A DNA stretch of 64,000 nucleotides from a virus (lineage: Duplodnaviria; Caudoviricetes): positions 11,081 to 75,080 of IMG/VR virus record IMGVR_UViG_3300033463_000088; one strand, 5' to 3'. The position numbers and the translations under genes are program-made. Each line of letters begins with the position of its first letter. The stretch's first letter is position 1. The notes beneath the pieces are model-generated. The model worked only from the letters and a program-made list of their open reading frames with translations, was not told where the DNA came from and ran no database searches. Positions 1-62,825 of this stretch are shown here, one piece after another.

Positions 1-373
1 CAACTGTTTTATTCTTAATAGCGATGACTGGGAGCTCCATTAAATTGCTATTTTCATAAATCATAGCAACTTTATAGCTGCTCTTACCTGTTGAAATGAC
101 AACATTATTACCATCAACCTTTAATTCAAAGGTTTCTGTTGTTAAACCAGAGATAAGTGATAAGAATAAAGCGCCATCGACGACAGCCCTGAACTCTTCG
201 TCAGTATCAACTGGGAATTTAATAGAAACATAATACTCTTTGTTGGTAACATTTAAGTATAATGCTGTTGGTTTAACCGAAATTTCAACATTTGCAGCGT
301 TCTTATCATTTGGGTCAGACGCTAATAAAATCTTATTTACGGCTTCTTGGAAATCTTTTGTTTTTAAAATCAT
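1..373 (-). CDS. DNA polymerase sliding clamp (beta-clamp/DnaN-like), truncated by window edge
   Basis: Not in the track. My translation from ATG 373 is MILKTKDFQEAVNKILLASDPNDKNAANVEISVKPTALYLNVTNKEYYVSIKFPVDTDEEFRAVVDGALFLSLISGL..., open to base 1. It resembles the clamp N-terminal domain and lies directly downstream of polA. Confidence 0.62.
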   Translation of the reverse strand, partial: MILKTKDFQEAVNKILLASDPNDKNAANVEISVKPTALYLNVTNKEYYVSIKFPVDTDEEFRAVVDGALFLSLISGLTTETFELKVDGNNVVISTGKSSYKVAMIYENSNLMELPVIAIKNKTV

Positions 374-383
374 ATCTTTCTCC

Positions 384-3300
384 TTAGAATGTTAAATCAG
401 CTTCTTGCGTGATTACATTATATAATACAGTTTTATCGTGTTCTGGGTGGTTATCATAAATGATGCCCAAAGCAGTTTCTCTGTCAACAGGGTGAATTCC
501 TTTCTCAGGATTTCCCTTTTCAAGTTTCTTAAACTCTTCTCTGATGGCAACTGCTGCTTCATCTTCATACCAGTGAGATACGTTATAAGGGTCACATTTC
601 ATAGGAACGTTAATGTAAGGTTTAGCAGTGTCAATCATAACTTGAGGAAGTCTCTTTTCAACAATGTCGGCGTATAAGGCTGGACATTCAACTAAAACTT
701 CATCATGAACGGTGATAACTAAGTGAGCATCAAGTTCATTTAAGAGAGGATCTCTATCAATATTAATCATTGCTAACTTTGTTAATGACGCAGCTCCGCC
801 TTGAATACGAGCATTGAAGCATTGTCTTTCAGCTTGGGCGCGTTTACCTGTATTAGCAATAAGTAAGATACCGTCAGCGAGAGCTTCTTTAGCAAGTTTT
901 TCGTATTGAACATTACTTACTTCATCATTTTCTTCCCAAACTCTGCCATCTTCAGCAGCTCTAGATCTTTGTTTTTCTTGAGAAGCTCTAATTTCACGCT
1001 TAATTCTTTCTTCCCACTTCTTAATTCTTGGGTCATCATTACTTTCTTTGTTAACACAATTTAAGAATGGATTAAAGTTAGCTTCAATATTATCATCTTT
1101 TAGCTTAACTGTATAAGATGGTAAGTTAATTTCTGGTAAGTGTCTTCTACGGCCAGCCCAGTCTTCAACATAACCAACCTTTTTAAGCTGAGCCTTAGAT
1201 GCTTCAATTTCTTCTTTAACTCTAGTAAATTTACCAAAGAAGTTATCTAATAGTTGTTGACCTTGTTTTCTAGCATCATCACCATTATAACCTAATCTAA
1301 TACCAGCGGTTTTACCTGACATACCATAAGTAGCAGCTAATAACATAGTTTTAGCAGAGGCTCTTCTTTCTTTGCCTGCTTTATGTAAGTGTGTTTTCTT
1401 ACCGCAAACAATTTTCTTACCGTCTAGCTCAATTTCAGTTCCTTCTGGGTAGAACTCTAAGTTTTCCCAGTATTCATTATGATACATAGATTGAGCAATA
1501 ACTGCGTATAAGTCTTGTCCTTGTTCATAAGCTTGAATCATTTTTTGGTCTTGACTAATAAAAGCAGTTAATCTTGGTTCTTGAGCTGAGTAGTCCGAAC
1601 CGACTAATTTATATCTTGTTCTACTATTAACTTCACAATCCGCATCTGTGTAAATTACGGCAGACTTATCAGCTTGATTATAACTAATATGTGAGATATT
1701 AATAATTTCACCTGAAGTTGAGAACAATTTATCTGTTTCAGTCAACTCTTTAACAAAGACATAGCCATTTGGTGTTTCTAGTTCGACGATTTCTTTAACA
1801 GTTTCGCCGACGCCTTCTAAGAAGTTAACAACACCCTTATCTTCCTTTGCTCGGAATAACATACGGATTTCTTTGTTATGAGATGGAATATTTTGAATGT
1901 TGATACCTGAGATTTCAACTGGCTTATCACCATCTAAGAATTTCCATTTACCGCCAGAACTATAACGTCCTGTGTCAGTTCCCATTGAATTAAGTTTAAA
2001 TCTAATACGATGGTCTGGCCAATGCTTTGCTAATTCAGGAATAACATCGATATATGTAGAAATTAATTTAACGATACCTCTTCTTTGGACGATTAATTTA
2101 CAAATAGAATAATCAGTTTGTTCTGCTAATGCAACTAATTCGTCTTCACCAGTAGCTCTTGGTTTAGCTTTATTAACTACTGGACATTTTAAGACATCAT
2201 AGAAAAGAATAGCTAATTGAGTTGGAGAAGCCATATTAATAACATCTGGAAGTTGCGCTGTCTTAGGTTTTGTTTCCTTATAACGTCTGCCTTCTTCGTC
2301 GACAAGGTTATAAGTATCTTCTTGTTTTTCCAAAGACATCTTAGACTTCTTAGGACAATACATTCTTGTCTTTTCATTAGCTTCTGGAGTTAATCTCCAA
2401 GCTTCAATTCTATCTTTAAGAGTATCTAACTCTTGATTAATTTTTTCGTCTAATTCTTGTAATTGTTTATTATATTTTTCTTTTAATCTTTCGCCGAACT
2501 CAAGGTCAACGGCGACACCTCTAAGCTCCATCTTAGCTGTAACTTCAACAATTGGGTTCTCAATGTTTTGGAAAAGTTTTAAAACTTTCTCATTACCTGC
2601 TTGTTGGAAGTAAGGAAGTTCCCAAAGATAAACCTTATCGGTCATCATTGAGTCAGTTGCAGCGTATAAAGCAAAGATTTCTGGGTCTACATAAATATAA
2701 GGAATATTTTCGAAGAGGCTTTCGATGTCATACTTAGCTTGTGTTGGATCAATTTCTGTTGTATAAATCCACTTTAAGCTTGTAGACTTTTCACTATATT
2801 TATTTTCATCAATTAATCTTGCGCCAATAATTGTGTCCCAGTCAGGTGGGATAGCAATTCCGCAAGTTTCAAGAAGAACTTCAAAGTCAAACTTGCCGTT
2901 GTGCATTATAATAAAAATATCACTATCTAAAATCCTTTGAAGTTGTTCTTTACAGTCTTCCTCAGTCATTTGCCAAGGTAATCTGATGCCTGTATCAACA
3001 TCAACATGATTTACTGGAATATAGGCTTGCTTTTCACCTGGAACATATAAACAAAGACCAACAATCTTACAAGTTGCTGGGTCAGTGGAGTTATTAGTTT
3101 CAGTATCGATGTCTATTCGTCCAGCTTTAATTGCTTTATCAATATAAGCAGAAAAGTCCTCTTTTGTTTTAATAACGACAGTGTTTTCCTTCTGTCTTCC
3201 TAAAATCTTGAGGACTTTTTCTGTAATAATAGCAAGACGTTCTTTAATGGAAAGCTCTTTGGAGGCCAAAAGTTTTTCAGTATTGACTTCAGCAGTTTTA

Positions 3301-3386
3301 ACTGATTCAACTTTCTTTACTAACTTTTTAACTGCTGACTTAGCGGTTAAATCGATATTAAATTCTTCTCCAAAAAGTCCTTCCAT
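384..3386 (-). CDS. polA: Family A DNA polymerase with 3'-5' exonuclease domain (1000 aa)
   Basis: Exo motifs DIDTET and HNGKFD; polymerase motifs DYSAQEPR, RASAKTMLLAATYG and VHDE. It carries two insertions. All 12 Trp codons are TGG. Confidence 0.97.
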   Translation of the reverse strand: MEGLFGEEFNIDLTAKSAVKKLVKKVESVKTAEVNTEKLLASKELSIKERLAIITEKVLKILGRQKENTVVIKTKEDFSAYIDKAIKAGRIDIDTETNNSTDPATCKIVGLCLYVPGEKQAYIPVNHVDVDTGIRLPWQMTEEDCKEQLQRILDSDIFIIMHNGKFDFEVLLETCGIAIPPDWDTIIGARLIDENKYSEKSTSLKWIYTTEIDPTQAKYDIESLFENIPYIYVDPEIFALYAATDSMMTDKVYLWELPYFQQAGNEKVLKLFQNIENPIVEVTAKMELRGVAVDLEFGERLKEKYNKQLQELDEKINQELDTLKDRIEAWRLTPEANEKTRMYCPKKSKMSLEKQEDTYNLVDEEGRRYKETKPKTAQLPDVINMASPTQLAILFYDVLKCPVVNKAKPRATGEDELVALAEQTDYSICKLIVQRRGIVKLISTYIDVIPELAKHWPDHRIRFKLNSMGTDTGRYSSGGKWKFLDGDKPVEISGINIQNIPSHNKEIRMLFRAKEDKGVVNFLEGVGETVKEIVELETPNGYVFVKELTETDKLFSTSGEIINISHISYNQADKSAVIYTDADCEVNSRTRYKLVGSDYSAQEPRLTAFISQDQKMIQAYEQGQDLYAVIAQSMYHNEYWENLEFYPEGTEIELDGKKIVCGKKTHLHKAGKERRASAKTMLLAATYGMSGKTAGIRLGYNGDDARKQGQQLLDNFFGKFTRVKEEIEASKAQLKKVGYVEDWAGRRRHLPEINLPSYTVKLKDDNIEANFNPFLNCVNKESNDDPRIKKWEERIKREIRASQEKQRSRAAEDGRVWEENDEVSNVQYEKLAKEALADGILLIANTGKRAQAERQCFNARIQGGAASLTKLAMINIDRDPLLNELDAHLVITVHDEVLVECPALYADIVEKRLPQVMIDTAKPYINVPMKCDPYNVSHWYEDEAAVAIREEFKKLEKGNPEKGIHPVDRETALGIIYDNHPEHDKTVLYNVITQEADLTF

Positions 3387-3417
3387 TGACGTCTCCTTTA
3401 CTTTATATATTGATTAA

Positions 3418-4353
3418 TTAAAATGAAAATCCGGCAAAGTTTCTAGCTGGTTTTTCTTCAGCTGGTTTTTCTTCAGTGGTTGTAGCAGTTGCTTTAGCAG
3501 GTTCTGCAGTACCAATAGCTGTATGAGCTTCGACATTGTTTGTACCAATAGCTGTATGACCAACTGCTGGAGCTGGTTTTGGATCTAATGCAGCGTCCAT
3601 CTCTGCTTCTTCTTTAGCGCTAGCAAAGACTGGATCACCACCAACTTTGATACCATTATCTAATGTTCTCATACCATCATCAGCTTTTTCAGCTTGAGGG
3701 AAGGAACCGTTAGCTAAGTAGTATTCTAAATCTTCTGCTGGTTTTTCCCAGTAGGAATGTTTATTGATATTGAAATTATCAAAAGCGCTGAAATCTGTAG
3801 AAACTAATTCTGGCTTATCATAAAGTGGAATGAAGTCTAAGGAATACTTAGTATCTTTACCAGAACCTTGACGTGTAACTTTGAAAACATGTTCTTTTAA
3901 GCTACCATAATCTTTTAACTTTGTTGCTAATTCTCTTGAGAAACCAGCAGGACGTTCCCAAACGACTGGTTGAGCAACACTCCAACTACCTGTTGCAGCG
4001 TCTTTATAAGCAACTAACATTTCAACATAAACTGTTTTAGCAGCTTTACCGACGACATCATGACCTTCAGCTGCAGCGCGGCAGAATGGGCAAGTATCGG
4101 AATAGGAACCAACTTCATTTAAGCAGCTAACTGGTGTAAAGCCTGTTCCGAGGCCTTCAAACTTTTTACCAAAAGCTGGTTTATGAACTGTTGCGAATTT
4201 TAAATCTTCAATTGTAGCAGCATTAATTCTGACGAGCGCTTCATCACCATTGCCTTTTAACTTGAAGAAACCGACTTTAACGGCGTTTGTAGATGGACCA
4301 CTTTGGGCTTTTTCTACGACTTTTTGATAATCATTGTAATTAAATTGACTCAC
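3418..4353 (-). CDS. T4 gp32-like single-stranded DNA-binding protein
   Basis: Zn-site-like H...SC...CPFC, FKVTRQGSGKDTKY motif, acidic low-complexity C-tail, position within the replisome cluster. Confidence 0.78.
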   Translation of the reverse strand: MSQFNYNDYQKVVEKAQSGPSTNAVKVGFFKLKGNGDEALVRINAATIEDLKFATVHKPAFGKKFEGLGTGFTPVSCLNEVGSYSDTCPFCRAAAEGHDVVGKAAKTVYVEMLVAYKDAATGSWSVAQPVVWERPAGFSRELATKLKDYGSLKEHVFKVTRQGSGKDTKYSLDFIPLYDKPELVSTDFSAFDNFNINKHSYWEKPAEDLEYYLANGSFPQAEKADDGMRTLDNGIKVGGDPVFASAKEEAEMDAALDPKPAPAVGHTAIGTNNVEAHTAIGTAEPAKATATTTEEKPAEEKPARNFAGFSF

Positions 4354-4416
4354 TGTAATCTTTCTCCTTTATCATTTAATCGAGTATCTTTATAATATAT
4401 TATACGACCTACGCGG

Positions 4417-5358
4417 CTATGAATTTCTAGCCTCTTGAATAATTTTATCAAATTCTGGCTTTGTCAAGTCGTTAATATCCTTTTTTCCGTCTGGAAACTT
4501 AGTTTCAACAATAATAATTCGCTTTGTAAGCTTTCTTTTTAATGTTTCTGTGAAACGTCTTCCAGCCTCGTCATTATCAAACATAGCGTATAAAACCCTA
4601 ATACAAGATTTATTTAGCTGTTCTATTTGATAATCAGAGATTTTACCGAATGTTGCTACTGTTGGATAACCATATTCCCAGCCAGTTAAGCAATCAAATG
4701 GTCCTTCTGTAATAACTGCTGTCTTAAAATTGTTTTTCATAACATAATCTAAGCAGTATACAGGCTTTTCGACATCTTTATCGAGATAAAATGTCTTAGT
4801 ATCTATTGATCGTTTGGTCATCATCACTAGTCTACCATTAATATCATAGGCTGGGAAGATGATTTGACGATATTTTGGGTCATATTTTACCTTAAAAAGC
4901 TCGCAAATCTCTCTTGAAAGCTTCCTTTTTGCTAAATATGGACACCAAGATTGGTAGTTTTCGAGGATTTTTGGGTCCAAAAATTGCTTCTTTTGGGTCC
5001 TTTTTCCTATTTGTATTGGCTCATCCATTGCTACTGCGCTTGATACAATCTCGCCTCCAAAGGTCTTTAATAGCCAATCTTTAGCGTATTCTAAAGAGGA
5101 ATCAAAGCATCCAGCAACAAACTTTAAGAATGAGCCTTTCATATCGCAGCCGAAGCAATGAAACACGCCATCTTTCTTTCTAATAAAGCAAGAGCCATGT
5201 TCTTCTTGACCACCGCTATGAAATGGGCAGCTTACGACGATATCGGTTGACTTATCTTGAATATCTTTTAACTTACCATTAGTTAAAACAATACGAAGTC
5301 TATCTAAGACTGTACTGATATCCGCATTAAGTATGAAATCGTTTGTAATTTTAACCAT
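4417..5358 (-). CDS. dnaG: DNA primase (CHC2 Zn finger plus TOPRIM)
   Basis: CPFH...FHCFGC zinc finger; EGPFD and MFDNDEAG TOPRIM motifs. Confidence 0.92.
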   Translation of the reverse strand: MVKITNDFILNADISTVLDRLRIVLTNGKLKDIQDKSTDIVVSCPFHSGGQEEHGSCFIRKKDGVFHCFGCDMKGSFLKFVAGCFDSSLEYAKDWLLKTFGGEIVSSAVAMDEPIQIGKRTQKKQFLDPKILENYQSWCPYLAKRKLSREICELFKVKYDPKYRQIIFPAYDINGRLVMMTKRSIDTKTFYLDKDVEKPVYCLDYVMKNNFKTAVITEGPFDCLTGWEYGYPTVATFGKISDYQIEQLNKSCIRVLYAMFDNDEAGRRFTETLKRKLTKRIIIVETKFPDGKKDINDLTKPEFDKIIQEARNS

Positions 5359-6698
5359 TATAATCCTGAATCGTCGTCGTCCTTAAATCCATCATTATCA
5401 CAAACTTCTTCTGAATAATAGTTAGGATCGATTTTTTCATCTGGATTAAGAGGAATAAATCTACCTTCGTCGAAGTTTGCTTTATAAATAATCTTACCAC
5501 TGCCGCCGTCTCTTGACTTGACAACATTTAAGATTAATTTATCATCTTTAACTTTTGTTTTGGCTTCATCTTCATAAGTTAAGTTTCTACTTAACATGAT
5601 AATGCTTGTCGCATCTTGGCCAATTCTATCTGATAAACCAATTTGAGTGGTATCTTGTTCACCATTATCTGTCTTATCTCTGTTTAATTGAGAAACAGAA
5701 ACAATTGGAATACCTTTCATAACTTGAAGATTTTTAATATCTTTTGAAATATTTGCAACCTTTTCTGGAACCGTCTTGCCGCCGCGTTCATCTTCCAATA
5801 AAGAATATTGGTCGATAAGCAACATATCAAGATGATATTTCTCAATAAAGGTTCTTAGAGCTGAAACAGTCGCTGGACCATTAATATCTTTTGGTGTTAA
5901 GATTTTAATATCGCCTGGGACGTAAGAATTAATATTATCTAAGTAATTCTTATAAGGAATTTGCATTGATGTATCAGTTCCTCTTGTAATAACTCTATTA
6001 CTGATGTGTCCGATTAAGCTATCTAAACGATACGCAACCTTATCAAAGATCATTTCACCTGAATAAAGACCAACATTATAACCTAATTGAGCGCCACTTG
6101 CTGCAACTTTCAATAAGGTCCAAGATTTACCTATACCTGTTCTAGCAGCAATAACCATATTTTCATTTTCGGTATCAATGCCGCCAATTAATGCATCAAG
6201 TTCTGGAAAACCTGTTGGAATATAATATTTGTTGTGATTAACAACTCTGTCTAAATACTTATCATAACGGCTTGTATCTTCTTTAATACTTACACATGTC
6301 ATAGCAGTATTAGGACGAGTAGTTGATACTCTTTCTTCGAGCATCTTGAATGCTTCTTTAGACTTACCACTTTCAACAAGCTTTTTAACTTCATTGAAGG
6401 TTGTTGCTAAGAAACTTTCTTCATAATCATTGAATAATTGTTCTAAGAGATATGAGTCTGGCTCATTAATGTCCATGATGTCAAAATCTGGGAAGACGTC
6501 AGCAAAAGTTAATCTATCTGGGACAGTTCCATATTTCTTATAGTGATTAACTATATAATTAAATTCATTTGGATATGTGAAGAAGAATTTATCTGACAAG
6601 TTATTAAGCTCGACGATTGAGAAATCCTTCGTTTGTAATAATTTATTAATTAGTTGAAATTGTGCTGTCATATTAGTCTCTTCCCTCACTGGTTGCAA
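5358..6698 (-). CDS. dnaB: Replicative DnaB-like helicase
   Basis: Walker A AARTGIGKS, LLIDQY, SQLNR, IGQDA and KSRDG motifs. Confidence 0.93.
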   Translation of the reverse strand: MQPVREETNMTAQFQLINKLLQTKDFSIVELNNLSDKFFFTYPNEFNYIVNHYKKYGTVPDRLTFADVFPDFDIMDINEPDSYLLEQLFNDYEESFLATTFNEVKKLVESGKSKEAFKMLEERVSTTRPNTAMTCVSIKEDTSRYDKYLDRVVNHNKYYIPTGFPELDALIGGIDTENENMVIAARTGIGKSWTLLKVAASGAQLGYNVGLYSGEMIFDKVAYRLDSLIGHISNRVITRGTDTSMQIPYKNYLDNINSYVPGDIKILTPKDINGPATVSALRTFIEKYHLDMLLIDQYSLLEDERGGKTVPEKVANISKDIKNLQVMKGIPIVSVSQLNRDKTDNGEQDTTQIGLSDRIGQDATSIIMLSRNLTYEDEAKTKVKDDKLILNVVKSRDGGSGKIIYKANFDEGRFIPLNPDEKIDPNYYSEEVCDNDGFKDDDDSGL

Positions 6699-7371
6699 TT
6701 AAATTTAAGTGTCTCTTATCGATACCATGTAATTCGATATCGACTGAACGGTTAACAATTCTACTTGCTAGTCGTTCACCCATTGTTTTTTCTAAATCTC
6801 TTGCTCCGAGATTTGATGTAAAGACATTGGTTTTACCTTTTTCTATTCTCATGTTGATTAAGTTTAATAACTGATTAAGTTCAAACTCTGTACCAACTTT
6901 TGTAGCAATGTCATCCCAAACAACAATATCTGCTGTTAAGACACGAGCTTTGATAAACTCGACGTATTCACTTCTACCTGAGATACTATTTTTTAATTCA
7001 ATTAAGAACCTTGGAACGCTGATAAATAAACCTTGACAACCAAAGTTTGACTCATACCAAATAGCATTAAAATAAGCTTGAATCATTCTGATCGCCCAGG
7101 AAGTTTTACCATTGCCGCAAGTATATGAGTGAATATATAAGTTTTGTCCTGTTTGAACAAAGTTCTTAATGTTCTTCTCAATATTTGCTAGCTGTAAAAA
7201 CTCATTGTAGTCAGTTCCGTCTGCATCAGTATTTAATGTTCGTCTGACACGTTGGAGTTCTTCCAAGTTTGAGTTATCATAGAGACAGTCTAATCTGTAT
7301 CTTCTCATACAGAAATCTTTATCACAGTCTCTACCATTACATTTATGTTTATATGGACAATTCTCGACCAT
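6673..7371 (-). CDS. DnaC/IstB-like AAA+ helicase loader with N-terminal Cys cluster
   Basis: CGNGKTSW Walker A, VVWDD Walker B, TNVFTSN and RLASRI motifs. Confidence 0.85.
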   Translation of the reverse strand: MVENCPYKHKCNGRDCDKDFCMRRYRLDCLYDNSNLEELQRVRRTLNTDADGTDYNEFLQLANIEKNIKNFVQTGQNLYIHSYTCGNGKTSWAIRMIQAYFNAIWYESNFGCQGLFISVPRFLIELKNSISGRSEYVEFIKARVLTADIVVWDDIATKVGTEFELNQLLNLINMRIEKGKTNVFTSNLGARDLEKTMGERLASRIVNRSVDIELHGIDKRHLNLIATSEGRD

Positions 7372-7390
7372 TAACTGCCTCCTTCTTTAA

Positions 7391-7942
7391 TTATTTGGTT
7401 CCTGTAGAACCTGCCCAACCTTCTCCTCTGGTTGTTTTTTCTTTATAAAATTCTAATGGTGTTTTATCTACAATTTCAAGTGGCTCTGTTGAGATTAAAT
7501 GAGGAATAAATTGAATAACTTTTTGTCCGCATTCTATCTCTTGCCAGTCATCAGAAGTATTAATTAAATGGAAATGCCATTCACCTTGATAGGAGCAATC
7601 AATAACTGATGCGCCGAAAATTAATTTCTTCTTTGTAGCAATACCAGATTTATTATTTGCAATCAAAGCTAACTCAGGACCAAACTTACTTCTAATACCA
7701 CTTGGGATAATAACATCTCTGTGAGGTCTAATGTGAATTTTTCCTGTATCAACTTCATAAACAACTGGGTTTGCGCAACCTTTGATTACTGCATCAGAAG
7801 TTGTAAACCAAGTAGCTGGGTTTTTATCTTTCATGTCTCTTTGAAATTCTTCAGTATTTTCTGGAATAAATAAATCAATTCCAGCATTTTCTTCGACAAC
7901 CCTTATAGGGTCTTTAACATTTCTTGTTTTAATAAATTGCAT
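7391..7942 (-). CDS. dut: Trimeric dUTPase
   Basis: AGIDL, NKSG, VIDCSYQGE and RGEGWAGSTG motifs. Confidence 0.92.
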   Translation of the reverse strand: MQFIKTRNVKDPIRVVEENAGIDLFIPENTEEFQRDMKDKNPATWFTTSDAVIKGCANPVVYEVDTGKIHIRPHRDVIIPSGIRSKFGPELALIANNKSGIATKKKLIFGASVIDCSYQGEWHFHLINTSDDWQEIECGQKVIQFIPHLISTEPLEIVDKTPLEFYKEKTTRGEGWAGSTGTK

Positions 7943-7959
7943 TATCTACACCTCATAAT

Positions 7960-7968
7960 ATTATACAA
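7960..7968 (-). promoter_or_regulatory. Sigma-A-type -10 element TTGTATAAT upstream of dut and the replisome
   Basis: Exact TTGTATAAT followed by GAGG SD. The same 9-mer recurs at 18152, 26486, 62417 and 62887. Confidence 0.6.
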
Positions 7969-8000
7969 TAGCGATGCGCGTAAAATGAGTATAAAAATAA

Positions 8001-8029
8001 AATATCGTCCAATTTTTTCGGACGATATT
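8001..8029 (-). terminator. Intrinsic terminator
   Basis: AATATCGTCC/GGACGATATT 10-bp stem followed by a T-rich tract on the minus strand, at the end of the folD operon. Confidence 0.7.
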
Positions 8030-8149
8030 CAACTTAAATATAGAAAATGTAAGGGTATTTTTTAGGTATCATTTACAGTATCTTTTAAGTTAAATATCGT
8101 TGATATTTTATCTTATAGAACGCTCAACGCGCTCACTTAATTTAGCCAA

Positions 8150-8509
8150 TTATTCTTGCGGTAAATTAGCAAAATCTTGACATAATTGTTGATATTTTGG
8201 GCTTGCCCTTGTCTCATCAATTTTGTCTTTATAAACAGTAGGCATGTTTAGAACCCAGTCTTTACAATCTGCTAAGGAGGCAAATCTTAAGAGAGCTCCT
8301 TTGATAGGACAAGCAATCATTGGAATTGCTGTACCAGATTTGATATCAACAATTTTCCAACGAAGTTCTGGATATAAAGCTCTACCTTGCTCTTTATAAG
8401 CAAAGAGTTCATAACCAATTGCTGTTCCTGAAACTTTGACTGCTGCGTAGTGATGATCTTTTGCTTCTTCATCTCAAACACGAGTATAAATTCTAAATTC
8501 TTTTGCCAT
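8150..8509 (-). CDS. Hypothetical protein (119 aa) with in-frame TGA(Trp) at codon 12
   Basis: ATG lies 2 nt after the folD stop. MAKEFRIYTRV[TGA]DEEAKDHHY...DFANLPQE-TAA stays open for more than 100 codons past the TGA at 8474-8476. Missing from the track. Confidence 0.75.
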
Positions 8510-8511
8510 AC

Positions 8512-9297
8512 TTAATTTAGCTTTCCTAATTCAATTAAATTATCTAAAACAGCAATTCGGGTCATAAGACCGACACCGCCAGGGACTGGACTTTGGAACT
8601 TAACATGTAAGTCTTTATCACAGTCTCCAGTAAGCTTTCCATCTTCACCAACATTGATGCCGACATCAAACACTATTGCGCGAGCTTTTAGTTTATATTT
8701 AGAAGTTAATGTATGTTGATGACCAGTAGCAACAACTATCAAGTCAGCGTGTTTCAAATAAAATGCTTTATCTGATTCACTTGTCTTTGAATGCAACACT
8801 GTGACATTCATACTTTCTTTGAGTAATAGTTGAGCCATTGGTTTACCAACAATATTTGAACGTCCAATAACTACAGCATTTTTTCCTTGGAAGTCATATT
8901 TCATATCTTTTAGATAATTGTAAATGCCAAGAGGAGTTGCTGGAACAGTTTTTGATAAAGGATGGAATCCATCAATATCTTTTTCAGGAGCAATAGCAAG
9001 TTTAACTTTTTCTTCAGAGATATGTTTTGGAAGAGGTAGCTGAACTAAATAACCTGTCAAATCTGGGTCAGCATTTAAGCCTTCCATTAAGTTTAATAAT
9101 TCAACTTCAGTAGTTTCTTCCGGGAGATTAATAATTTCGCAATCAATGTTCACCTCAGCAGCATCCTTAGCTTTATTTCGAACATATCTGTCTGAGGCAG
9201 GAACATGTCCAATTTGAACAATAACCATCTTCAAATCAGGATGTGAATTTTTTAATTTTTCTTTCTTTTCTGCTACATATTCTTTAATTATTTGCAT
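8512..9297 (-). CDS. folD: Bifunctional methylene-THF dehydrogenase/cyclohydrolase
   Basis: YVRNK, LVQLPLP, KDIDGFHP, VIGRSNIVGKP, DVGIN and PVPGGVG motifs. Confidence 0.97.
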   Translation of the reverse strand: MQIIKEYVAEKKEKLKNSHPDLKMVIVQIGHVPASDRYVRNKAKDAAEVNIDCEIINLPEETTEVELLNLMEGLNADPDLTGYLVQLPLPKHISEEKVKLAIAPEKDIDGFHPLSKTVPATPLGIYNYLKDMKYDFQGKNAVVIGRSNIVGKPMAQLLLKESMNVTVLHSKTSESDKAFYLKHADLIVVATGHQHTLTSKYKLKARAIVFDVGINVGEDGKLTGDCDKDLHVKFQSPVPGGVGLMTRIAVLDNLIELGKLN

Positions 9298-9307
9298 ACT
9301 AATCTCC

Positions 9308-9556
9308 TTACCAACTAACTATAAAATTTGGATAATCTGGCCAGGCAACATTAACATTAAAGCCTTCAGAACTAATATAATCGCTAACGTCCCAAATAAG
9401 ATATCTATTTCCATATTTATCTGGGATTCTAAAAATCATTTCTCTATTTCCGCGCTCCGCTTCCATTTTTATATAATGATGGAGCTCATCAATAAATTGT
9501 TCTCTTGTAGTTCTTGGGTCAACCCCAGCTAGTTGTCTTGCTTCTTTTGCTGTCAT
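9308..9556 (-). CDS. Hypothetical protein
   Basis: 82-aa ORF with SD, in operon. Confidence 0.7.
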   Translation of the reverse strand: MTAKEARQLAGVDPRTTREQFIDELHHYIKMEAERGNREMIFRIPDKYGNRYLIWDVSDYISSEGFNVNVAWPDYPNFIVSW

Positions 9557-9557
9557 A

Positions 9558-9701
9558 TTATTTCCTCTTTTTTTGATTATTTAGCCATTGATAAAACTCA
9601 TTTGTTGCATCTCTGCAATAAAATGAGTCTGGCTTTGCAGTACAACCACTTGCGGTTTTATATCTGCAAAAATCACATTTAGTATATCTTTTACTAACCA
9701 T
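9558..9701 (-). CDS. Small Cys-rich hypothetical protein (47 aa)
   Basis: MVSKRYTKCDFCRYKTASGCTAKPDSFYCRDATNEFYQWLNNQKKRK fills the gap between fhs and the next gene with 1-nt spacing on each side. Confidence 0.6.
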   Translation of the reverse strand: MVSKRYTKCDFCRYKTASGCTAKPDSFYCRDATNEFYQWLNNQKKRK

Positions 9702-9702
9702 A

Positions 9703-11454
9703 CTAATTAAATTTATCTAAGCAGCGAGGTTCTTTTGGTAAACCTGGCATTAATAATAATTTGCCAGATAATGGAACAATTAAACCTGCGCCACTATATA
9801 ATCGGATTTCTCTAATATGAATTGTAAATCCAGTTGGAGCTCCAAGAACTTTTGGATCATCTGTTAATGAGTTTGGAGTCTTACTGATACAAACAGGAAG
9901 ATGACTATAACCCATATCAGTATATTTTCTCATTTGTTCTCTAGCTAAATCGGAATATTCAATTCGATCAGCACCATAAATATTATGACAGATAGTTCCA
10001 ATCTTATCATCAATAGAGTAATTTCTGTAATCACCTTGAGGATAAAGTGGATATAATGGTTCAAAGTGGTCAGCTAATTCTGGGAAGACACTAACTGCTT
10101 CGCTATCTTGAACATTTAAGATGCCTTGGACAGTTCTTGCTAAACTGACAGCGCCATCGCCACCATCAAGAGCAGCAGTATTAATTGCCCAATTAATTTT
10201 ATTTTCTTTACACCAAGCTCCAATAGCTTCTAATTCAGCATCAGTATCACTTGGGAAACGGTTAATAGCAACAACAACTGGGACACCATATCTTGTCATA
10301 TTTTCATAATGCTTTTGTAAATTACAAATACCAGCTTTAACTGCTTCAACATTTTCTTTTTCTAAATCTTCAAATGCAACACCACCATGAAGCTTTAATG
10401 CTCTAGCAGTGGCAACTAAGACAATAACATTTGGATGAATTCCTGCTAATTGACATTTAATATCTAAGAACTTTTCAGCTCCGAGGTCTCCACCGAATCC
10501 GGCTTCTGTGACAACAACGTCAGATAATTTAAGCGCTAACTTTGTTGCATTGATAGAATTAACACCGATAGAGATATTAGCGAATGGTCCGCAATGCACT
10601 AAAACTGGATTTTCTTCAAGTGTTTGAACAACATTTGGATTCATTGCATTTCTCATCATTTTAAGAATTGCTTTACTACAATTGAATTGTCCAAAGTAAA
10701 CTGGATTTCCATCATAGTCATAAGCAGCAATAATCTTATTAACTCTATCAATAAACTCTTCTTCGCTTTGAGAAATTGTTAAAATTGTCATAAGTTCAGA
10801 AGCAACTGTAATAACAAATTCTGAGTTATGATTTGATTTCTTGTCTCTTAATTTTTTAAGGTCTTCTTTAGTGCCGCCATTAAGAGATAATTTATCTAAT
10901 TCAATATCTAAATTTCTGCCATCTAAATCAAAACCAGCGGTGCCATCAGCATTGACGCCGACACTTCTCAATGAACGGTCATTAACGTCAAGCGCACGTT
11001 TCCATTCAATTCTTCTTGGATCAATTCTTAATTCATTGCCTTGCCAAATATGGTTTTCGATAATGGCAGACATTAAATTAATAGTAGAAGTTAACGCATG
11101 AAAATCGCCTGTGAAATGTAAATTAATATCATCACTTGGAACAATAGTTGATTTTAAGGCACCAACTGCTCCACCCTTAATGCCCCAAACAGGGCCTAAA
11201 GATGGTTCTCTTAAACAAGCAAGAGAATTAACACCAATTCTACGTAAGCCATCGTGTAGGCCAATTGTAGTTGTAGTTTTGCCTTCACCGGCTTTTGTTG
11301 GAGTAATAGCTGTTACTAATACTAATTTACCGTCAGGTCTGTCTTTCAAAACCTCACGGTATTTATAGTCAATCTTAGCTTTATCCCAACCATAAGGTTG
11401 GACATATTCATTAGGTATACCTAATTCTTTAGTTAAATCTAAAATATTTTTCAT
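9703..11454 (-). CDS. fhs: Formate--tetrahydrofolate ligase
   Basis: TAITPTKAGEGKTTTTIGL, REPSLGP, GIKGGA, INLHFTGDFHA, HCGPFANI, VTEAGFG, EKFLDIKC and MPGLPK motifs. Confidence 0.97.
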   Translation of the reverse strand: MKNILDLTKELGIPNEYVQPYGWDKAKIDYKYREVLKDRPDGKLVLVTAITPTKAGEGKTTTTIGLHDGLRRIGVNSLACLREPSLGPVWGIKGGAVGALKSTIVPSDDINLHFTGDFHALTSTINLMSAIIENHIWQGNELRIDPRRIEWKRALDVNDRSLRSVGVNADGTAGFDLDGRNLDIELDKLSLNGGTKEDLKKLRDKKSNHNSEFVITVASELMTILTISQSEEEFIDRVNKIIAAYDYDGNPVYFGQFNCSKAILKMMRNAMNPNVVQTLEENPVLVHCGPFANISIGVNSINATKLALKLSDVVVTEAGFGGDLGAEKFLDIKCQLAGIHPNVIVLVATARALKLHGGVAFEDLEKENVEAVKAGICNLQKHYENMTRYGVPVVVAINRFPSDTDAELEAIGAWCKENKINWAINTAALDGGDGAVSLARTVQGILNVQDSEAVSVFPELADHFEPLYPLYPQGDYRNYSIDDKIGTICHNIYGADRIEYSDLAREQMRKYTDMGYSHLPVCISKTPNSLTDDPKVLGAPTGFTIHIREIRLYSGAGLIVPLSGKLLLMPGLPKEPRCLDKFN

Positions 11455-12032
11455 TAATAATTTTTCTCCAGTTTATCTTTATTAACATTATACCAAGAAA
11501 CAAAATCATCGAGAGAGTCAGAGCCATCTAATTGAGTTAATAATTTAACTAATAACTTTTCTGAGTCAACATGCATTGCTCTTTGACCTTCACACTTAGC
11601 TTTCCAATAATCTAATGGTGTATGAACTGTCCAAGCTTCTTTTGAATAAGCTTTACCAGCACCAACAAAGTCACAGAACATTTCAATAACTCTTTCATAA
11701 GGCATTTTAACGCACTTACAAATAATTGTAAAAGTTCCGTCGCCATTTGGCTTGGCTTCGTTGAAATCAGTCCAATATTCCCAGTGATGTAAATTACGTG
11801 CTTTGTGGTGAATCCAGCTTGGGCTATAGCCTAACTTAGCTCTTGCAATATCATGCGGGCTTTTTGTGCCATCAGCGTATTTATAAATTTCAAACTCATC
11901 TGGACTAAACTTACTTAAATCATGTTGCTCACCAAGTTCTGGAATTCCCATTTGATAACATAAATCTCTAACAACTTTAATATGATTATTTATAGTTTGA
12001 GTATGTAAGTCTCTTTTTTCTTTATCTGTCAT
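11454..12032 (-). CDS. HD-like metal-dependent phosphohydrolase (DUF5662-like), copy 1
   Basis: H...HDLSK...WIHHKARNLHHWEYW...MP..RVIEMFCD pattern. Confidence 0.7.
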   Translation of the reverse strand: MTDKEKRDLHTQTINNHIKVVRDLCYQMGIPELGEQHDLSKFSPDEFEIYKYADGTKSPHDIARAKLGYSPSWIHHKARNLHHWEYWTDFNEAKPNGDGTFTIICKCVKMPYERVIEMFCDFVGAGKAYSKEAWTVHTPLDYWKAKCEGQRAMHVDSEKLLVKLLTQLDGSDSLDDFVSWYNVNKDKLEKNY

Positions 12033-12295
12033 TATTTAGTCTCCTGTTTAACTGTAGTAGCTGTCACCATATTTTTACCTTCTTGGGTAGGCGCGATAAT
12101 AATATCATTTAAACCCTGCTCATAACAAATTTCTTTAAGTCTTTTGCACAAATTATAAACATCTTCTTTTGGCATTTTACCAACTTCAACATTTAAAATT
12201 ACTACTTCACCAGGAGTATAAGTTTTAACTACTTTTTGAATAGTCATCTTTTGAACTTCTTCTTTAATAAATTCTTTAATTTGTTTATCTGTCAT
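12032..12295 (-). CDS. Hypothetical protein
   Basis: 87-aa ORF, translationally coupled to its neighbours. Confidence 0.65.
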   Translation of the reverse strand: MTDKQIKEFIKEEVQKMTIQKVVKTYTPGEVVILNVEVGKMPKEDVYNLCKRLKEICYEQGLNDIIIAPTQEGKNMVTATTVKQETK

Positions 12296-12791: not shown

Positions 12792-12936
12792 TTGGGCTTT
12801 CAACTCTATCACCAAGTTCAAGCTCTTCCATTAAACGTTTTTCTTCAGCTTTTTCAACTGGATCGAGCTCTCTTGTTTCAGAAATACAAGCTAATTCCAT
12901 TAAACGTCTGTGAACGTATTGTTTTCTGTTTGACAT
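12784..12936 (-). CDS. Small hypothetical protein (50 aa)
   Basis: MSNRKQYVHRRLMELACISETRELDPVEKAEEKRLMEELELGDRVESPND, coupled to both neighbours. Confidence 0.6.
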   Translation of the reverse strand: MSNRKQYVHRRLMELACISETRELDPVEKAEEKRLMEELELGDRVESPND

Positions 12937-52500: not shown

Positions 52501-53745
52501 TTGAACTGTATAAATATGATTACCAGTGACAGTTGGTCTAATTTCTCAGTTTTGCCAAGCCATATCAACTGATAATGGGTCTCCAATTGTTTCACCATCA
52601 ATATATTGAATAACAGTAGAATTATTTAATCCTGGTGTATATACACGGTATCTAATATTAAATGCAACATATTGTTCTTGTTCTGACTCACTAGGGAATG
52701 TAGAAGCAATAATTGGTGTTTGATTACCTGCAACATAGCAGATTAAGTCATAGTTTAAGACATTAGATGTAACTAAGTCTTCACCTAAAACTGCAGTAAA
52801 ATAAACACTTAAAGTATGAGCACCATGAGCTTGTGCTGGAATAATCTTTGTGCATTGTTCACCAGTTGTTTTAATAACATCTTGTCCAATTTCTCTTCCA
52901 TCAACAATAAAGTGAACTGTTTTTGCAACATCACCAATTGGGACATATGTATAAGTAATAAAGCCAGTATAACTGACATCATCTTCAAATGCAGATGTTA
53001 ATTTAAGAGAAACAGCGTTAATGTTTCCGATAATATTTTTAGTAGTTGAATAAGTATCAGTAACTTTGAATTCAACTTTATTACTGCCTGATTTTAAATA
53101 AGCAGAAATATCACACTCATAATCACCTTGAGGAACAGACTTCTTAGCAACTAATACATCATTGACATAAACGAGCATTGTGCCGTTTCCAGTTGGATCT
53201 CCGTCTCTCTTAGATGTCCAATTAACTTTTAATACAACTTCTGCACCGACAGCAACAGATGTTGGCCAATATGGTTCTTTTGTGACTGGATCTTTATTTA
53301 CTAATGTGACTGTAGTAACACCTCCACCACTACTGCCACCAGAGCCATCTCCGCTACCTCCACCTGAAATACTATAAGGACCTGATACAATGTATTCACC
53401 ATTTTTACCAGGATTTCCTTGACCAGTTGTTTCATCAACTTCAGATGTAAAATACCAATAAGCTTTTCTAGCAAATTGTTTATCTACGTCAAAATACATG
53501 CCCTTAACTTTTTTATCATTTGCTTGGGCAATAATATTTGCAATATCGGTTGTATTTACTTTTTGTGCTAATTTTTCTTCTAAACCAGTGATTGCTGAAA
53601 TAGGATGTTGATCATCAGCATCCCTATTAAATAATCTGTTATGGTCTGTTACTCCGCTTCCACCAGTGGCAGTAGCTGTTTTATTATCACGGGAAGAAAT
53701 AGAACCATTAAATGATTGTTTAGATTTTATTGTTCCACTTGCCAT
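46582..53745 (-). CDS. Giant 2387-aa surface/virion protein: Ig-like, LamG-like, CotH-like, LRR, InlB-B-type repeats, PKD, BspA-type LRR; 5 TGA
   Basis: Six track ORFs share one frame, joined by TGA at 52546, 50872, 50491, 48793 and 48175. Motifs VQGTSSQYYYRKNF, MVDSRAKN, [W]FWLPYDMD, IDWGDGS and IxxxAFxxCxxL repeats. Confidence 0.87.
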
Positions 53746-54165: not shown

Positions 54166-54175
54166 TAATTTAGCA
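54166..54175 (-). promoter_or_regulatory. Putative late-promoter motif TGCTAAATTA
   Basis: Between the 54196 terminator and ATG 54138. Confidence 0.65.
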
Positions 54176-58895: not shown

Positions 58896-58905
58896 TAATT
58901 TAGCA
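58896..58905 (-). promoter_or_regulatory. Putative late-promoter motif TGCTAAATTA
   Basis: Between the 58923 terminator and ATG 58874. Confidence 0.65.
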
Positions 58906-58969: not shown

Positions 58970-59314
58970 TTATTTTTTCATTCCATTGTACCACTTAATG
59001 CAGCTATCAATATAACTACCTAATTGGTCAATAAATGGATCTAAGTCAATACCAGCTGCTTTGCAACCTTCTTTGACCATATTAACAACTAATTCTTTCT
59101 TACCAGCGCCACTTAAGGTTGATCTTTCAGCTTCTTTCATAGCAGCGTCTGTAATTTCTTGAATCATAGCCCAAATTTCTTTAGAAGATTTTTCTTTTGT
59201 AGCTTTAATCCAGTTTCTAATTGCAAAGAATGTACCAACGCCTGTGCCGATTAAGCCGACTAAGCCAGTAATTAATGCAAGTAAGCCGTTAACTGTTGTA
59301 ATCCAATCACCCAT
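58970..59314 (-). CDS. Putative holin (LL-H-like)
   Basis: Single N-terminal TM helix, then A.KEAE...SGAGKKE.V amphipathic pattern and a basic C-terminus. Confidence 0.55.
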   Translation of the reverse strand: MGDWITTVNGLLALITGLVGLIGTGVGTFFAIRNWIKATKEKSSKEIWAMIQEITDAAMKEAERSTLSGAGKKELVVNMVKEGCKAAGIDLDPFIDQLGSYIDSCIKWYNGMKK

Positions 59315-59891: not shown

Positions 59892-59901
59892 TAATTTAGC
59901 A
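59892..59901 (-). promoter_or_regulatory. Putative late-promoter motif TGCTAAATTA
   Basis: Intergenic, upstream of the holin-like pair. Confidence 0.6.
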
Positions 59902-60374: not shown

Positions 60375-60384
60375 TAATTTAGCA
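60375..60384 (-). promoter_or_regulatory. Putative late-promoter motif TGCTAAATTA
   Basis: Directly after the 60385 terminator and 15 nt before ATG 60359. Confidence 0.62.
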
Positions 60385-60437: not shown

Positions 60438-61406
60438 CTATTTAACAGTAACTGTTTCAATATGAGACACAGCTTTGTACTCTTCTAATTTAACATGATA
60501 TTTATTATAACAAACACCATCTTCAATTATTAAGACATTCTGCGGATGATAATAGGCTCCGATTGAAGTAACATATACTCCGCAATCAATACCGATTACA
60601 TCTTTACTATAATAAATTTTAGTAATAAAGCTACCAGTATTTTTTATATTCTTTAAATGCTTATAGAAATCTGCTACATGCCAGTGACCACAAACAATAG
60701 TTTTGCCTGTTTTATTCCAACCTTTTTTAGCTTTTGCCCAAGGACAACCCCATGTAGCATCACCCCACTCAGTTTGAGTAGCGTTTTTCCAGTCTTCTCT
60801 ATAACCTATTTCTTCTGGTGGGCAATTTGGGTCTAACATAGCAAACTTGGTAGCACATGGAATCCAGCTATGAACCATAATATATTTATCTAATTCAAAA
60901 TAGTTAACCCATCTTTTATCATCTAAAATTAGCTTTGTAATTGGGTGATTTTTAACAATTTCTAAAACTTGCTTCCAATGCTTATTTGTTAAGTCACCTT
61001 CTGGGTTATCATCAGCATCTTCCCAACCACGATAGAGGCTAAAATACTGATAATAACTATTTTTCTCAAAATAACCTTCAATACAATCAAAGTCTAACTG
61101 TTTTGTTCTTGCTATTTGACAAAAAGTGTCTACTGTATGATTATGAAAATCATGACTTTCTGGATAATCTTTTTCTAAAAGTTCTTTATATAATAATTCA
61201 TGGTTGCCACGAACTAAGATACAACGTTTTTTTGGAATAGAAGAAATAAATTTATAAATACTTAAAGCATCTGGCCCACGATCAAATAAATCACCTAAGA
61301 TTACCAAGGTGTGATTTTTGTTTTTCTTATCAAACCCAGCATCTTTTAATGCATTTTTGAATTCAATATAGAAACTATGAATGTCAGATACTACAAAATA
61401 TTTCAT
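60438..61406 (-). CDS. Calcineurin-like metallophosphoesterase
   Basis: SDIHS, GDLFDRG, RGNHE, VHS, GHWH and IDCG motifs; all Trp codons are TGG. Confidence 0.9.
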   Translation of the reverse strand: MKYFVVSDIHSFYIEFKNALKDAGFDKKNKNHTLVILGDLFDRGPDALSIYKFISSIPKKRCILVRGNHELLYKELLEKDYPESHDFHNHTVDTFCQIARTKQLDFDCIEGYFEKNSYYQYFSLYRGWEDADDNPEGDLTNKHWKQVLEIVKNHPITKLILDDKRWVNYFELDKYIMVHSWIPCATKFAMLDPNCPPEEIGYREDWKNATQTEWGDATWGCPWAKAKKGWNKTGKTIVCGHWHVADFYKHLKNIKNTGSFITKIYYSKDVIGIDCGVYVTSIGAYYHPQNVLIIEDGVCYNKYHVKLEEYKAVSHIETVTVK

Positions 61407-61416
61407 ATTAATTAAT

Positions 61417-61569
61417 TTAGTCGTCCCATTCCCAAATTGTTGCTAATACTGCGTATGGAAATGCAAATAATAAACCTAAAATAGCAAATGGAACAAATAA
61501 TACTGCGCCAAGTAATGCCAATGGAACACAAAATATTGAACCAAAAATTTTACCAACTGTAGATTTCAT
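61417..61569 (-). CDS. Small membrane protein (50 aa)
   Basis: MKSTVGKIFGSIFCVPLALLGAVLFVPFAILGLLFAFPYAVLATIWEWDD; its ATG overlaps the upstream stop. Confidence 0.6.
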   Translation of the reverse strand: MKSTVGKIFGSIFCVPLALLGAVLFVPFAILGLLFAFPYAVLATIWEWDD

Positions 61570-61907
61570 TATTGTAATACCTCCGCATCTTTTACTAAAT
61601 AATCATATACTGTTTCCCAGGTTTCTACTTCTGGAGTTTCTTGTAATTGCTTTGCTTTATGTTTTGCATCAAAATTATCAAAGTCATATAATTTATAAGT
61701 AATTAATTCTGTATGATCATACATTACTTTGGTAATTAATTTAAGTAATTTATCTTCATAATCACCATATAAGAATACATCACAATAAGTTTCTGGACTT
61801 AGTTCTTCTAATGCTTTACAGAATTTGTCTTGCTGAAGACTCTTCTTTTGAATGAACTCCATGTAAGTTACAAATTCTTGTTTACTGAGTAACATTTTAT
61901 TCTTCAT
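61569..61907 (-). CDS. Hypothetical protein
   Basis: 112-aa ORF in operon. Confidence 0.65.
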   Translation of the reverse strand: MKNKMLLSKQEFVTYMEFIQKKSLQQDKFCKALEELSPETYCDVFLYGDYEDKLLKLITKVMYDHTELITYKLYDFDNFDAKHKAKQLQETPEVETWETVYDYLVKDAEVLQ

Positions 61908-62397
61908 TTTTTAATAGCTCTTGTGCTTTCTTCTTTTGTTTTTTCTCTAATTTATTATAAGCTTCTTCAACTGTTTCTTCTGTAATTTCTTGTTTTTCTA
62001 GCATTTTTCTAAAAGCTTCTTGTTCAGCTTTATTATACCAAGTACCATATTCTGTTTTTTCCCAGCCTGGGTTTTCTTTTAGCCAATCATCTAAGCGATT
62101 TTTATAGTCTTCTTCATCCCAACACATTTCTGTATGATTATCTGGAAATTCTTTTTCTAACATAACTACTTGGTCATAATCAACAAATTCAAATTTACCT
62201 TCATCACCATATTCACTATTATAGCTAACATCAGTCCATTCTATAATAGAGCAATAGCCATCAGTAGTAATATGAATATCATAATATTGTTTATCATTCT
62301 TTTTATTGTGATCTAAAAGATAATTAAGCAAGTCATTAAATAAACCTTGTTCAACTTCTTCTGGTGTAAATGCTTGGTAGTTATAGTTTCTGTTCAT
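61897..62397 (-). CDS. Hypothetical protein
   Basis: 166-aa ORF with AGGAG SD and TTGTATAAT at 62417-62425. Confidence 0.7.
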   Translation of the reverse strand: MNRNYNYQAFTPEEVEQGLFNDLLNYLLDHNKKNDKQYYDIHITTDGYCSIIEWTDVSYNSEYGDEGKFEFVDYDQVVMLEKEFPDNHTEMCWDEEDYKNRLDDWLKENPGWEKTEYGTWYNKAEQEAFRKMLEKQEITEETVEEAYNKLEKKQKKKAQELLKNEE

Positions 62398-62436
62398 AAA
62401 AAACTCCTATATTTATATTATACAATATTTTCCATT

Positions 62437-62461
62437 AAAAAACCTCCATTTCTGGAGGCTT
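62437..62461 (-). terminator. Intrinsic terminator
   Basis: CCTCCA-GAAA-TGGAGG followed by TTTTTT. Confidence 0.85.
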
Positions 62462-62465
62462 ATTA

Positions 62466-62825
62466 TTACCAAGTAATAAAAATGCAATTGTCTCGAACTT
62501 CAGTTTTATAACCATCAATTTCGAGCTCTTTGAGCAAATGCTCTTTGCAAATAGGACTAAGATTTTCTGTAGCCCACTCAATGCTAATATAACCTTCTAA
62601 AGCAGTATCTCTAATATATTTATAGAGACGTGTTAATTGAACTATACTAGTATCAGCCATATTTCTGGCTTCTGTAGCATTGAGTCTTCTTTTTTGAAGC
62701 TTCTCAATATTTGCTAGTTTAAGTTCTGCAAGTTTTTTCTCTTCTTGCGCGTCAATGTCTGCTAGCTTAATATAGACATCTGGATCTACTTTGCCTTGTA
62801 AAGGCTCTCTTAATTGTTTACCCAT
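62466..62825 (-). CDS. Hypothetical protein
   Basis: 119-aa ORF; TTGTATAAT at 62887-62895. Confidence 0.65.
   Translation of the reverse strand: MGKQLREPLQGKVDPDVYIKLADIDAQEEKKLAELKLANIEKLQKRRLNATEARNMADTSIVQLTRLYKYIRDTALEGYISIEWATENLSPICKEHLLKELEIDGYKTEVRDNCIFITW

Follow-up and report, generated by a model that had tools for sequence, protein, structure and literature searches.

Nearly TGA-free early genes and late genes with tryptophan-coding TGA in a fragment of a large rumen or gut phage

We analyzed a 64,000-nucleotide stretch of phage DNA (the window), corresponding to bases 11081-75080 of the 75,080-bp linear virus record IMGVR_UViG_3300033463_000088 (hereafter G000). TGA codes for tryptophan in this DNA, and it is distributed very unequally between the genes for replication and metabolism, named early here, and the tail, host-surface-binding and lysis genes, named late. 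We consider it highly probable that G000 is a stop-codon-recoded phage, with TGA-free early genes suited to an unmodified host and late genes that need a UGA decoder. The same explanation, held as a whole with that degree of confidence, places the window in a fragment, about 33% complete, of a rumen or gut phage whose full genome would be large (roughly 150-240 kb). An earlier reading, based only on the sequence, had proposed that the early genes can be read in the standard code and that the late genes are unlocked by a UGA decoder supplied by the phage. This proposal appears well supported and fits every test run: the assignment of TGA to tryptophan, the selection acting on early genes, the link between TGA and a late motif, the presence of tRNA(UCA) and of a tryptophan-tRNA ligase (TrpRS) in a complete relative (G001), and the presence of release factor 2 (RF2) in relatives of the candidate host.

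The gene blocks of the window, and the single genes on which the argument relies, were called as open reading frames (ORFs) in code 4, with TGA as sense:

1-18134, minus strand: early block, with sliding-clamp-like protein, PolA, primase, DnaB, helicase loader, dUTPase, FolD, Fhs, DUF5662, nucleoside deoxyribosyltransferase-like protein, DHFR and ThyA-like protein; 85 TGG and 1 TGA; all stops TAA or TAG.
8150-8509, minus strand: ORF of 119 amino acids, no known family; carries the one in-frame TGA (8474-8476, codon 12) found in the window's early block.
18268-23524, plus strand: late unit, with a 155-amino-acid protein followed by a 1595-amino-acid multidomain protein with a GH2 glycosidase region; 5 TGA and 17 TGG.
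23577-60359, minus strand: late block, with GHMP-kinase-like, Peptidase_S74 tail fibre, Laminin_G_3, Ig-like, CotH, Mtd_N-like, 2387-amino-acid BspA-type leucine-rich repeat (BspA-LRR) and Cthe_2159-domain proteins, holin and small ORFs; 69 TGA and 124 TGG.
41575-45081, minus strand: double CotH-domain protein, 1168 amino acids; 15 in-frame TGA.
46582-53745, minus strand: BspA-LRR and Listeria-Bacteroides-repeat protein, 2387 amino acids; 5 TGA and 34 TGG.
58970-59314, minus strand: holin of the Holin_LLH family; 0 TGA and 4 TGG.
60438-62825, minus strand: right-hand TGA-free block, with a metallophosphoesterase and three small ORFs; 0 TGA and 18 TGG.

The middle part (18268-60359) codes for tail-fibre and host-surface-binding proteins plus the holin, and the left part of the record (record positions 1-29214) adds clamp loader subunits, RecA and a RecU-like nuclease to the early set. 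In the window alone, TGA and TGG are found in a ratio of 1:103 in the early blocks and 74:141 in the late block. When the 11 kb upstream are added, the ratio is 3:127 over 40 early genes versus 74:141 over 27 late genes (p = 1.8e-14 in the Fisher test by gene class that the sequence-only reading had proposed). TGA is carried by 3 of the 40 early genes versus 17 of the 27 late ones. The gene counts of that reading were reproduced (TGA/TGG of 0/12 in PolA, 0/8 in the ThyA-like protein, 0/6 in Fhs and 0/10 in the phosphoesterase), and its late maximum of 15 TGA per gene is reached at 41575-45081. Its statement that early genes never stop at TGA also holds: the 40 early genes, upstream 11 kb included, end with 29 TAA, 10 TAG and one open end. 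Indeed, TGA is not used as a terminator, and no early ORF has a TGA close to its 3' end; one late TGA, located four codons before the GH2 protein ends, is ambiguous in this respect. The first of the three early TGA codons lies 5' of the codon where the clamp loader really starts (its sequence opens with MTETLAVKYRP), the second belongs to the RecU-like gene outside the window, and the third is the codon at 8474-8476, the single early exception noticed previously.

TGA is read as tryptophan in G000. The 1168-amino-acid CotH protein was searched against 1.84 billion representative proteins, and the best 150 matches were re-aligned with TGA masked as X. Seven TGA columns (345, 375, 384, 467, 824, 864 and 873) each hold tryptophan in 66 to 149 homologues, the shares being 148/149, 132/141, 125/141, 66/79, 149/149, 129/145 and 114/134. 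The masked columns behave like conserved TGG columns. In the orthologues of the 2387-amino-acid protein from two recoded relatives, 20 of 31 and 8 of 11 in-frame TGA stand opposite a tryptophan of G000. Code 25, where TGA codes for glycine, is excluded by the TGA columns with tryptophan in up to 149 of 149 homologues. A sequence search of the PDB with the CotH protein gave no match. Comparison of the GH2 protein with PDB chains was ambiguous as a test of TGA, which stood opposite L, V/H and W/L; the 150 library homologues were used instead.

The completeness of the G000 record is estimated at 33% by CheckV, and no terminal repeat was found in its 75 kb. Once TGA is read as sense, the record is almost wholly coding, mainly on the minus strand. 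No capsid, portal or terminase genes were detected on the contig, which fits G000 being a fragment. A megablast search with 20 kb of the window against deposited phages returned no match. Related phages were fetched with the 2387-amino-acid BspA-LRR protein as a marker, yielding 38 IMG/VR contigs, including records of 146, 201, 217 and 237 kb. Two of these contigs are TGA-recoded and four TAG-recoded, the remainder using the standard code. Three relatives are referred to by label: G001 (237 kb, complete), G003 (146 kb, 64% complete, the closest to G000) and G004 (201 kb, more distant). G000 and G003 are collinear in reverse orientation, and the early block of G000 is collinear with that of G001. 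As a query, the phosphoesterase retrieved one contig, carrying a single odd tRNA, and the 166-amino-acid right-end protein retrieved no relative.

In G001 and G003, the early-gene orthologues likewise lack TGA, and comparison between phages demonstrates that early genes are held in this state by selection, not by composition or inertia. Early genes have 39 out-of-frame TGA per 1000 codons, and late genes have 35. For the A/G-ending codon pairs of Lys, Glu, Gln, Leu and Arg, the share of A-ending codons is 70-91% in early and 77-95% in late genes. The TGA share of tryptophan codons is 2% (0.02) in early genes and 34% (0.34) in late genes. Since out-of-frame TGA and A-shares are similar in both classes, base composition cannot account for the skew. 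In early genes of G000 and G003, AAA and AAG differ in 166 of 423 conserved Lys columns (39%). The conserved early tryptophan columns comprise 73 TGG/TGG, one TGA/TGA (in RecU) and no mixed pair, and the late ones 40 TGG/TGG, 20 mixed and one TGA/TGA. The Lys sites have therefore turned over, yet the early tryptophan codons have remained unchanged, indicating that early genes are selected against TGA and that late genes swap TGA and TGG freely. The base 3' of TGA, examined as a sign of competition with RF2, was inconsistent, with an excess of G in G000 but an excess of A and a deficit of T in the two relatives G001 and G003.

The RecU-like nuclease (record positions 9841-10317, minus strand, 764 bases before the window) has its one TGA directly ahead of the E-C-K (E-x-K) motif. 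This column also holds TGA in G003 and Phe in G001; it is the only TGA/TGA column among the 74 conserved early tryptophan columns.

Two types of promoter-like motif were derived from the intergenic regions: a late motif, (T)GCTAAATTA, and an early motif, TTGTATAAT(A), containing a TATAAT-type -10 element. The early-type motif is located ahead of TGA-free genes and the late motif ahead of TGA-bearing units. Exact copies in the window include:

7959-7968, minus strand: early-type promoter-like motif TTGTATAATA (TATAAT -10 hexamer).
18151-18160, 62416-62425 and 62886-62895: further exact TTGTATAATA copies, 5' of TGA-free genes.
26485-26494: exact TTGTATAATA copy within the late block.
18229-18237, plus strand: late promoter-like motif GCTAAATTA, ahead of the plus-strand unit.
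25517-25525, 38085-38093, 41552-41560, 54166-54174, 58896-58904, 59892-59900 and 60375-60383, minus strand: other exact GCTAAATTA copies in the late block.

The window has 10 copies of the late motif where 2.0 +/- 1.4 would be expected, a number that was reached in 0 of 100 shuffles. All ten copies lie at gene boundaries in the sense orientation, eight of them in the late block, and the remaining two (8513-8521 and 8138-8146) flank the TGA-bearing ORF at 8150-8509. The TGA:TGG ratio of the first gene after the motif was compared in three phages. It was 15:24 after GCTAAATTA versus 2:20 after TTGTATAAT in G000 (p = 0.018), 39:46 versus 6:81 in G003 (p = 3e-9), and 106:38 versus 10:63 in G001 (p = 1e-17). 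We consider GCTAAATTA as a putative late promoter, promoter-like in sequence and position, that tracks TGA genes in the three phages. A search for sigma-70 region 2 in G000 and G003 gave no match.

The ORF at 8150-8509 is bordered on both sides by the same 12-mer, GCTAAATTAAGT (8138-8149 and 8510-8521, minus strand). No orthologue was found in G001 or G003. The ORF looks like a late cassette or moron inserted between folD and dut.

A candidate decoder was found in the complete relative. Suppressor tRNAs were sought with ARAGORN allowing introns, and with a custom scan for a UCA anticodon arm followed by a T arm; the two scans found one in G001 only. Two intron-containing 'tRNA-Ser' calls in G000 were spurious. 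The G001 tRNA is 75 nt long with anticodon UCA; ARAGORN labelled it SeC, but its length is ordinary, and its A1-U72 pair, G73 and CUUCAAA loop are tRNA-Trp-like. This tRNA is preceded, at a distance of 15 nt, by a TTGTATAAT motif. A tryptophan-tRNA ligase is encoded 2.5 kb away (trpS equivalog TIGR00233, 317 bits versus a cut-off of 177). The tRNA, its motif and the TrpRS are all located within a zone at 205-230 kb with nearly no in-frame TGA. No RF-1 domain was detected in G001; G004 encodes a release factor of RF1 type that has the PAT and GGQ motifs (L090). Both G003 and G001 also encode a tRNA-Trp(CCA).

From the gene order of G003, a tRNA array was expected shortly after the window ends on the right. 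When metagenome contigs were searched for exact matches, this gave contig L164 (Ga0310690_10003636; 1-6403), which overlaps the last 127 bases of the window with 100% identity. It carries five TGA-free genes (those for a methyltransferase, a Thg1-like protein and a Band_7 protein among them), followed by a 12-tRNA array (Ala, Pro, Thr, Ala, Pro, Val, Arg, Thr, Lys three times and Thr) in the order of the second array of G003. An exact-protein look-up returned only the contig of the related strain.

Other features were noticed in the relatives. Directly 5' of the TrpRS gene of G001, and beside tRNA(UCA), lies an ORF that matches Lon protease over its C-terminal half, with the AAA+ and protease domains (L092, 192-1415). 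Relatives also have tRNA-like genes whose anticodon loops are of abnormal size, namely 6 nt (G003 48045-48118), 9 nt (L049 1501-1572) and about 5 nt (L091 145-216); ARAGORN calls the first 'Asn or Stop'.

The gene content gives a lead to the host. PolA is nearest to PolA of Firmicutes phages, and Firmicutes are also suggested by RecU, by the Holin_LLH holin and by the Listeria-Bacteroides repeats. The nearest cellular Fhs homologues (53-61% at the amino-acid level) belong to uncultured rumen or gut metagenome-assembled genomes (MAGs) of small size (0.8-2.4 Mb) and low GC content, labelled Bacilli, Bacillales or Erysipelotrichaceae. At the DNA level, fhs, folD and thyA reach up to 75% identity with rumen or gut Bacilli MAGs. 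A single Fhs protein used as query against genome contigs gave no match; an alignment used as query gave matches. When 151 genomes of the candidate host order were searched at the DNA level, similarity was seen only in fhs, folD and thyA; the search scores only two candidates per genome and is therefore unable to detect CRISPR spacers. The sequence-only reading had suggested checking the genetic code of the host and its prfB. The gene for RF2, prfB, scored over the curated cut-off in four of the five MAGs tested, the nearest by Fhs, and in-frame TGA is absent from the fhs genes of these MAGs.

Several observations weigh against a phage-encoded switch, or limit it. As noted in the sequence-only reading, the window contains no tRNA (ARAGORN) and no release factor (RF-1 domain); no tRNA, TrpRS or release factor was found in the whole 75-kb record either. 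The search for tRNA-Trp(TCA), RF1 and TrpRS outlined in that reading thus succeeded only in the relatives G001 (tRNA and TrpRS) and G004 (RF1-type factor). The 6.3 kb of the neighbouring contig, with its 12 tRNAs, likewise contain no tRNA(UCA), TrpRS or release factor. In G003 (146 kb, 38 tRNAs; 64% complete), no match to tRNA(UCA), TrpRS or a release factor was found. Several late genes, the holin among them, carry no TGA. The metallophosphoesterase labelled 'early' (60438-61406; 0 TGA and 10 TGG in G000, TGA-free in G003) is recoded in G001, with 4 TGA, so its class is not fixed across the clade. Two units in the late block have TATAAT-like motifs, yet they contain 11 TGA. Finally, Bacilli are a host lead only and not an assignment, resting solely on the similarity of metabolic genes.

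The mechanism that we propose for G000 would operate as follows. The genes for replication, recombination and folate/thymidylate synthesis, placed behind TATAAT-type host-like promoters, would avoid TGA both as sense and as stop, and a host reading TGA as stop would translate them correctly. The GCTAAATTA-driven genes (tail fibres, carbohydrate-binding/hydrolase proteins and lysis region), in which about one third of the tryptophan codons are TGA, would yield complete proteins only after a UGA-reading tRNA-Trp is present. The decoder would be a Trp-like tRNA(UCA) of the phage, expressed from an early-type promoter and possibly aided by a phage TrpRS, both encoded in the missing part of G000. 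By analogy with G001, we infer that G000 has the same decoder. The early/late timing and the standard code of the host are presumed in this scheme, and recoding may have a regulatory role beyond the constraint it puts on early genes.

A narrower version of this mechanism, which we regard as possible though doubtful, concerns the sub-lineage of G000 and G003. There, the code switch would be wired to the GCTAAATTA late regulon, and single TGA codons (in RecU and in the ORF at 8150-8509) would gate genes to late expression within early operons. The decoder could be non-canonical, since neither the 38 tRNAs in the 146 kb of G003 nor the array beside G000 include a tRNA(UCA).

It is unlikely, but less so than the explanations considered after it, that the switch is real and imposes a constraint without regulating anything. 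With a suppressor in place, late TGA would then drift neutrally under AT pressure, late promoters alone would set the timing, and only the absence of TGA from early genes would be selected. The free turnover between late orthologues (20 mixed columns versus one shared) is what such drift would produce. Similarly, TGA shows no 5' bias along genes (mean relative position 0.46-0.54), the holin and several further late genes manage without it, and a dedicated late motif already divides the two classes. However, a late TGA share of 0.34, far under the 0.77-0.95 of comparable codon pairs, is not simply neutral. Moreover, the TGA before the catalytic motif of RecU is common to G000 and G003, in an otherwise TGA-free early operon.

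We consider very unlikely the alternative raised in the sequence-only reading, that of a native code-4 host (Mycoplasmatales-like, without RF2), the early TGG codons then being due to expression level or to recent acquisition. Mollicutes-related lineages (Acholeplasmataceae, 'Tenericutes' and Erysipelotrichaceae) are indeed among the nearest cellular relatives of the folate genes, and no decoder was found on the G000 contig. The codon counts disfavour such a host: early TGA stays at 2% while other A/G pairs in the same genes are 70-91% A-ending, and the late share, at only 34%, is well under the AT-pressure expectation (70-95% for A-ending pairs over both classes). The pattern is also kept in three phages despite saturated synonymous change. 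In a code-4 host, the tRNA(UCA) and TrpRS of G001 would be redundant; in addition, members of the clade use the standard or a TAG-recoded code, and the nearest Fhs-bearing MAGs have RF2. Equally improbable is inefficient reading of TGA by an ordinary tRNA-Trp(CCA) of host or phage, with TGA as an attenuator lowering late protein yield: the lack of UCA among the 38 tRNAs of G003 and the 12 of the neighbouring contig, the tRNA-Trp(CCA) of G003 and G001 and the minority share of TGA in late tryptophan codons would suit it, but leaky read-through could hardly complete proteins with 13-15 TGA, the G003 tRNA-Trp(CCA) has, as read from its sequence, an ordinary U11-G24 pair and not the A24 of the Hirsh suppressor, and G001 has a clear UCA tRNA, G000 (33%) and G003 (64%) being incomplete.

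The preferred explanation, early genes in the host code and late genes in a phage code, is a pattern already published together with its model, and G000 is not new in kind. Borges et al. (bioRxiv 10.1101/2021.08.26.457843) described large phages from animal guts that infect Firmicutes (Jade, Sapphire and Agate). Their structural and lysis modules, dispersed over the genome, use TGA for tryptophan, their replication genes can still be read in the standard code, TGA no longer serves as a stop, and codes 11, 4 and 15 are mixed within clades. In that study, a suppressor tRNA(UCA) was found in only about 35% of TGA-recoded genomes. A 'code change' operon of Jade comprises TrpRS, RF1 and a suppressor tRNA, and their model is early standard-code translation followed by a switch. 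G000 resembles these phages in belonging to a large gut genome, in reading TGA as tryptophan in structural and lysis genes, in its standard-code-compatible replication genes and in the lack of TGA stops. G001 shares TrpRS and the suppressor with the Jade module, but not RF1. The Jade clade is defined by a large-terminase tree, and the G000 contig has no terminase to place. The work of Borges et al. later appeared in Nature Microbiology (2022).

Other known systems show partial likeness. Crass-like phages (Yutin et al. 2021, PMC7886860; Peters et al. 2022, PMC9523058) have late genes recoded from TAG to Gln or from TGA to Trp, with suppressor tRNAs, and proteomic proof exists for TAG. The block-wise reassigned stop in late genes is common to them and G000; however, they differ in their Bacteroidota hosts, gene content and genome size, and the G000 PolA is nearest to Firmicutes phages. 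The TrpRS:tRNA-Trp(UCA) pair of phage AP1, also called a 'code change operon', has been found experimentally to insert Trp at UGA (PMC12636597). It is the same kind of pair as in G001, and none is present on the G000 contig. According to Borges et al. (bioRxiv 10.1101/2021.08.26.457843), TGA is present in about 90% of the genes of phages whose hosts natively use code 4 or code 25. Phages of Mycoplasma, Spiroplasma and Absconditabacteria share with G000 the use of in-frame TGA as an amino acid; G000 differs from native code-4/25 phages by TGA being restricted to 3/40 early and 17/27 late genes, and by its TGA standing opposite Trp, not Gly. Late promoters of T4 type consist of TATAAATA and are served by gp55 with the sliding clamp. 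Like them, the late motif of G000 is a short AT-rich single element with TAAAT, and G000 encodes its own clamp and clamp loader; a sigma-like gene was not found in G000 or G003, unlike in T4, and the resemblance is a lead only.

To the published case, the present analysis adds a codon-turnover test of selection, a late motif tracking TGA in three phages, a UGA decoder behind an early-type promoter in G001, and a RecU TGA common to G000 and G003. As far as could be found, neither the link with the GCTAAATTA late motif nor the codon-turnover test is in Borges et al. The finding by itself raises no new question beyond those already in the field, namely the host, the decoder and whether recoding regulates timing. 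In practice, such contigs need code-4 annotation; otherwise their tail and lysis genes are fragmented.

Two other regions of the window can be listed:

8512-17122: folate one-carbon set of FolD, Fhs, DHFR and ThyA-family enzyme, with the adjoining dUTPase.
62826-64000: mostly non-coding end of the record, about 1.2 kb without a convincing ORF.

At the gathering score, no Rfam family was found in the window; the sole match in 62500-64000 is sub-threshold (SpF36 sRNA, 62895-62975). Homologues of the 2387-amino-acid protein in five otherwise standard-code relatives (L007, L009, L016, L018 and L023) each contain one in-frame TGA, opposite a Gly of the query, which may be a gene boundary crossed by tblastn or a read-through site. 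Finally, the 201-kb relative G004 carries a tmRNA inside its tRNA array (L052 13-397; L054 2672-3056).

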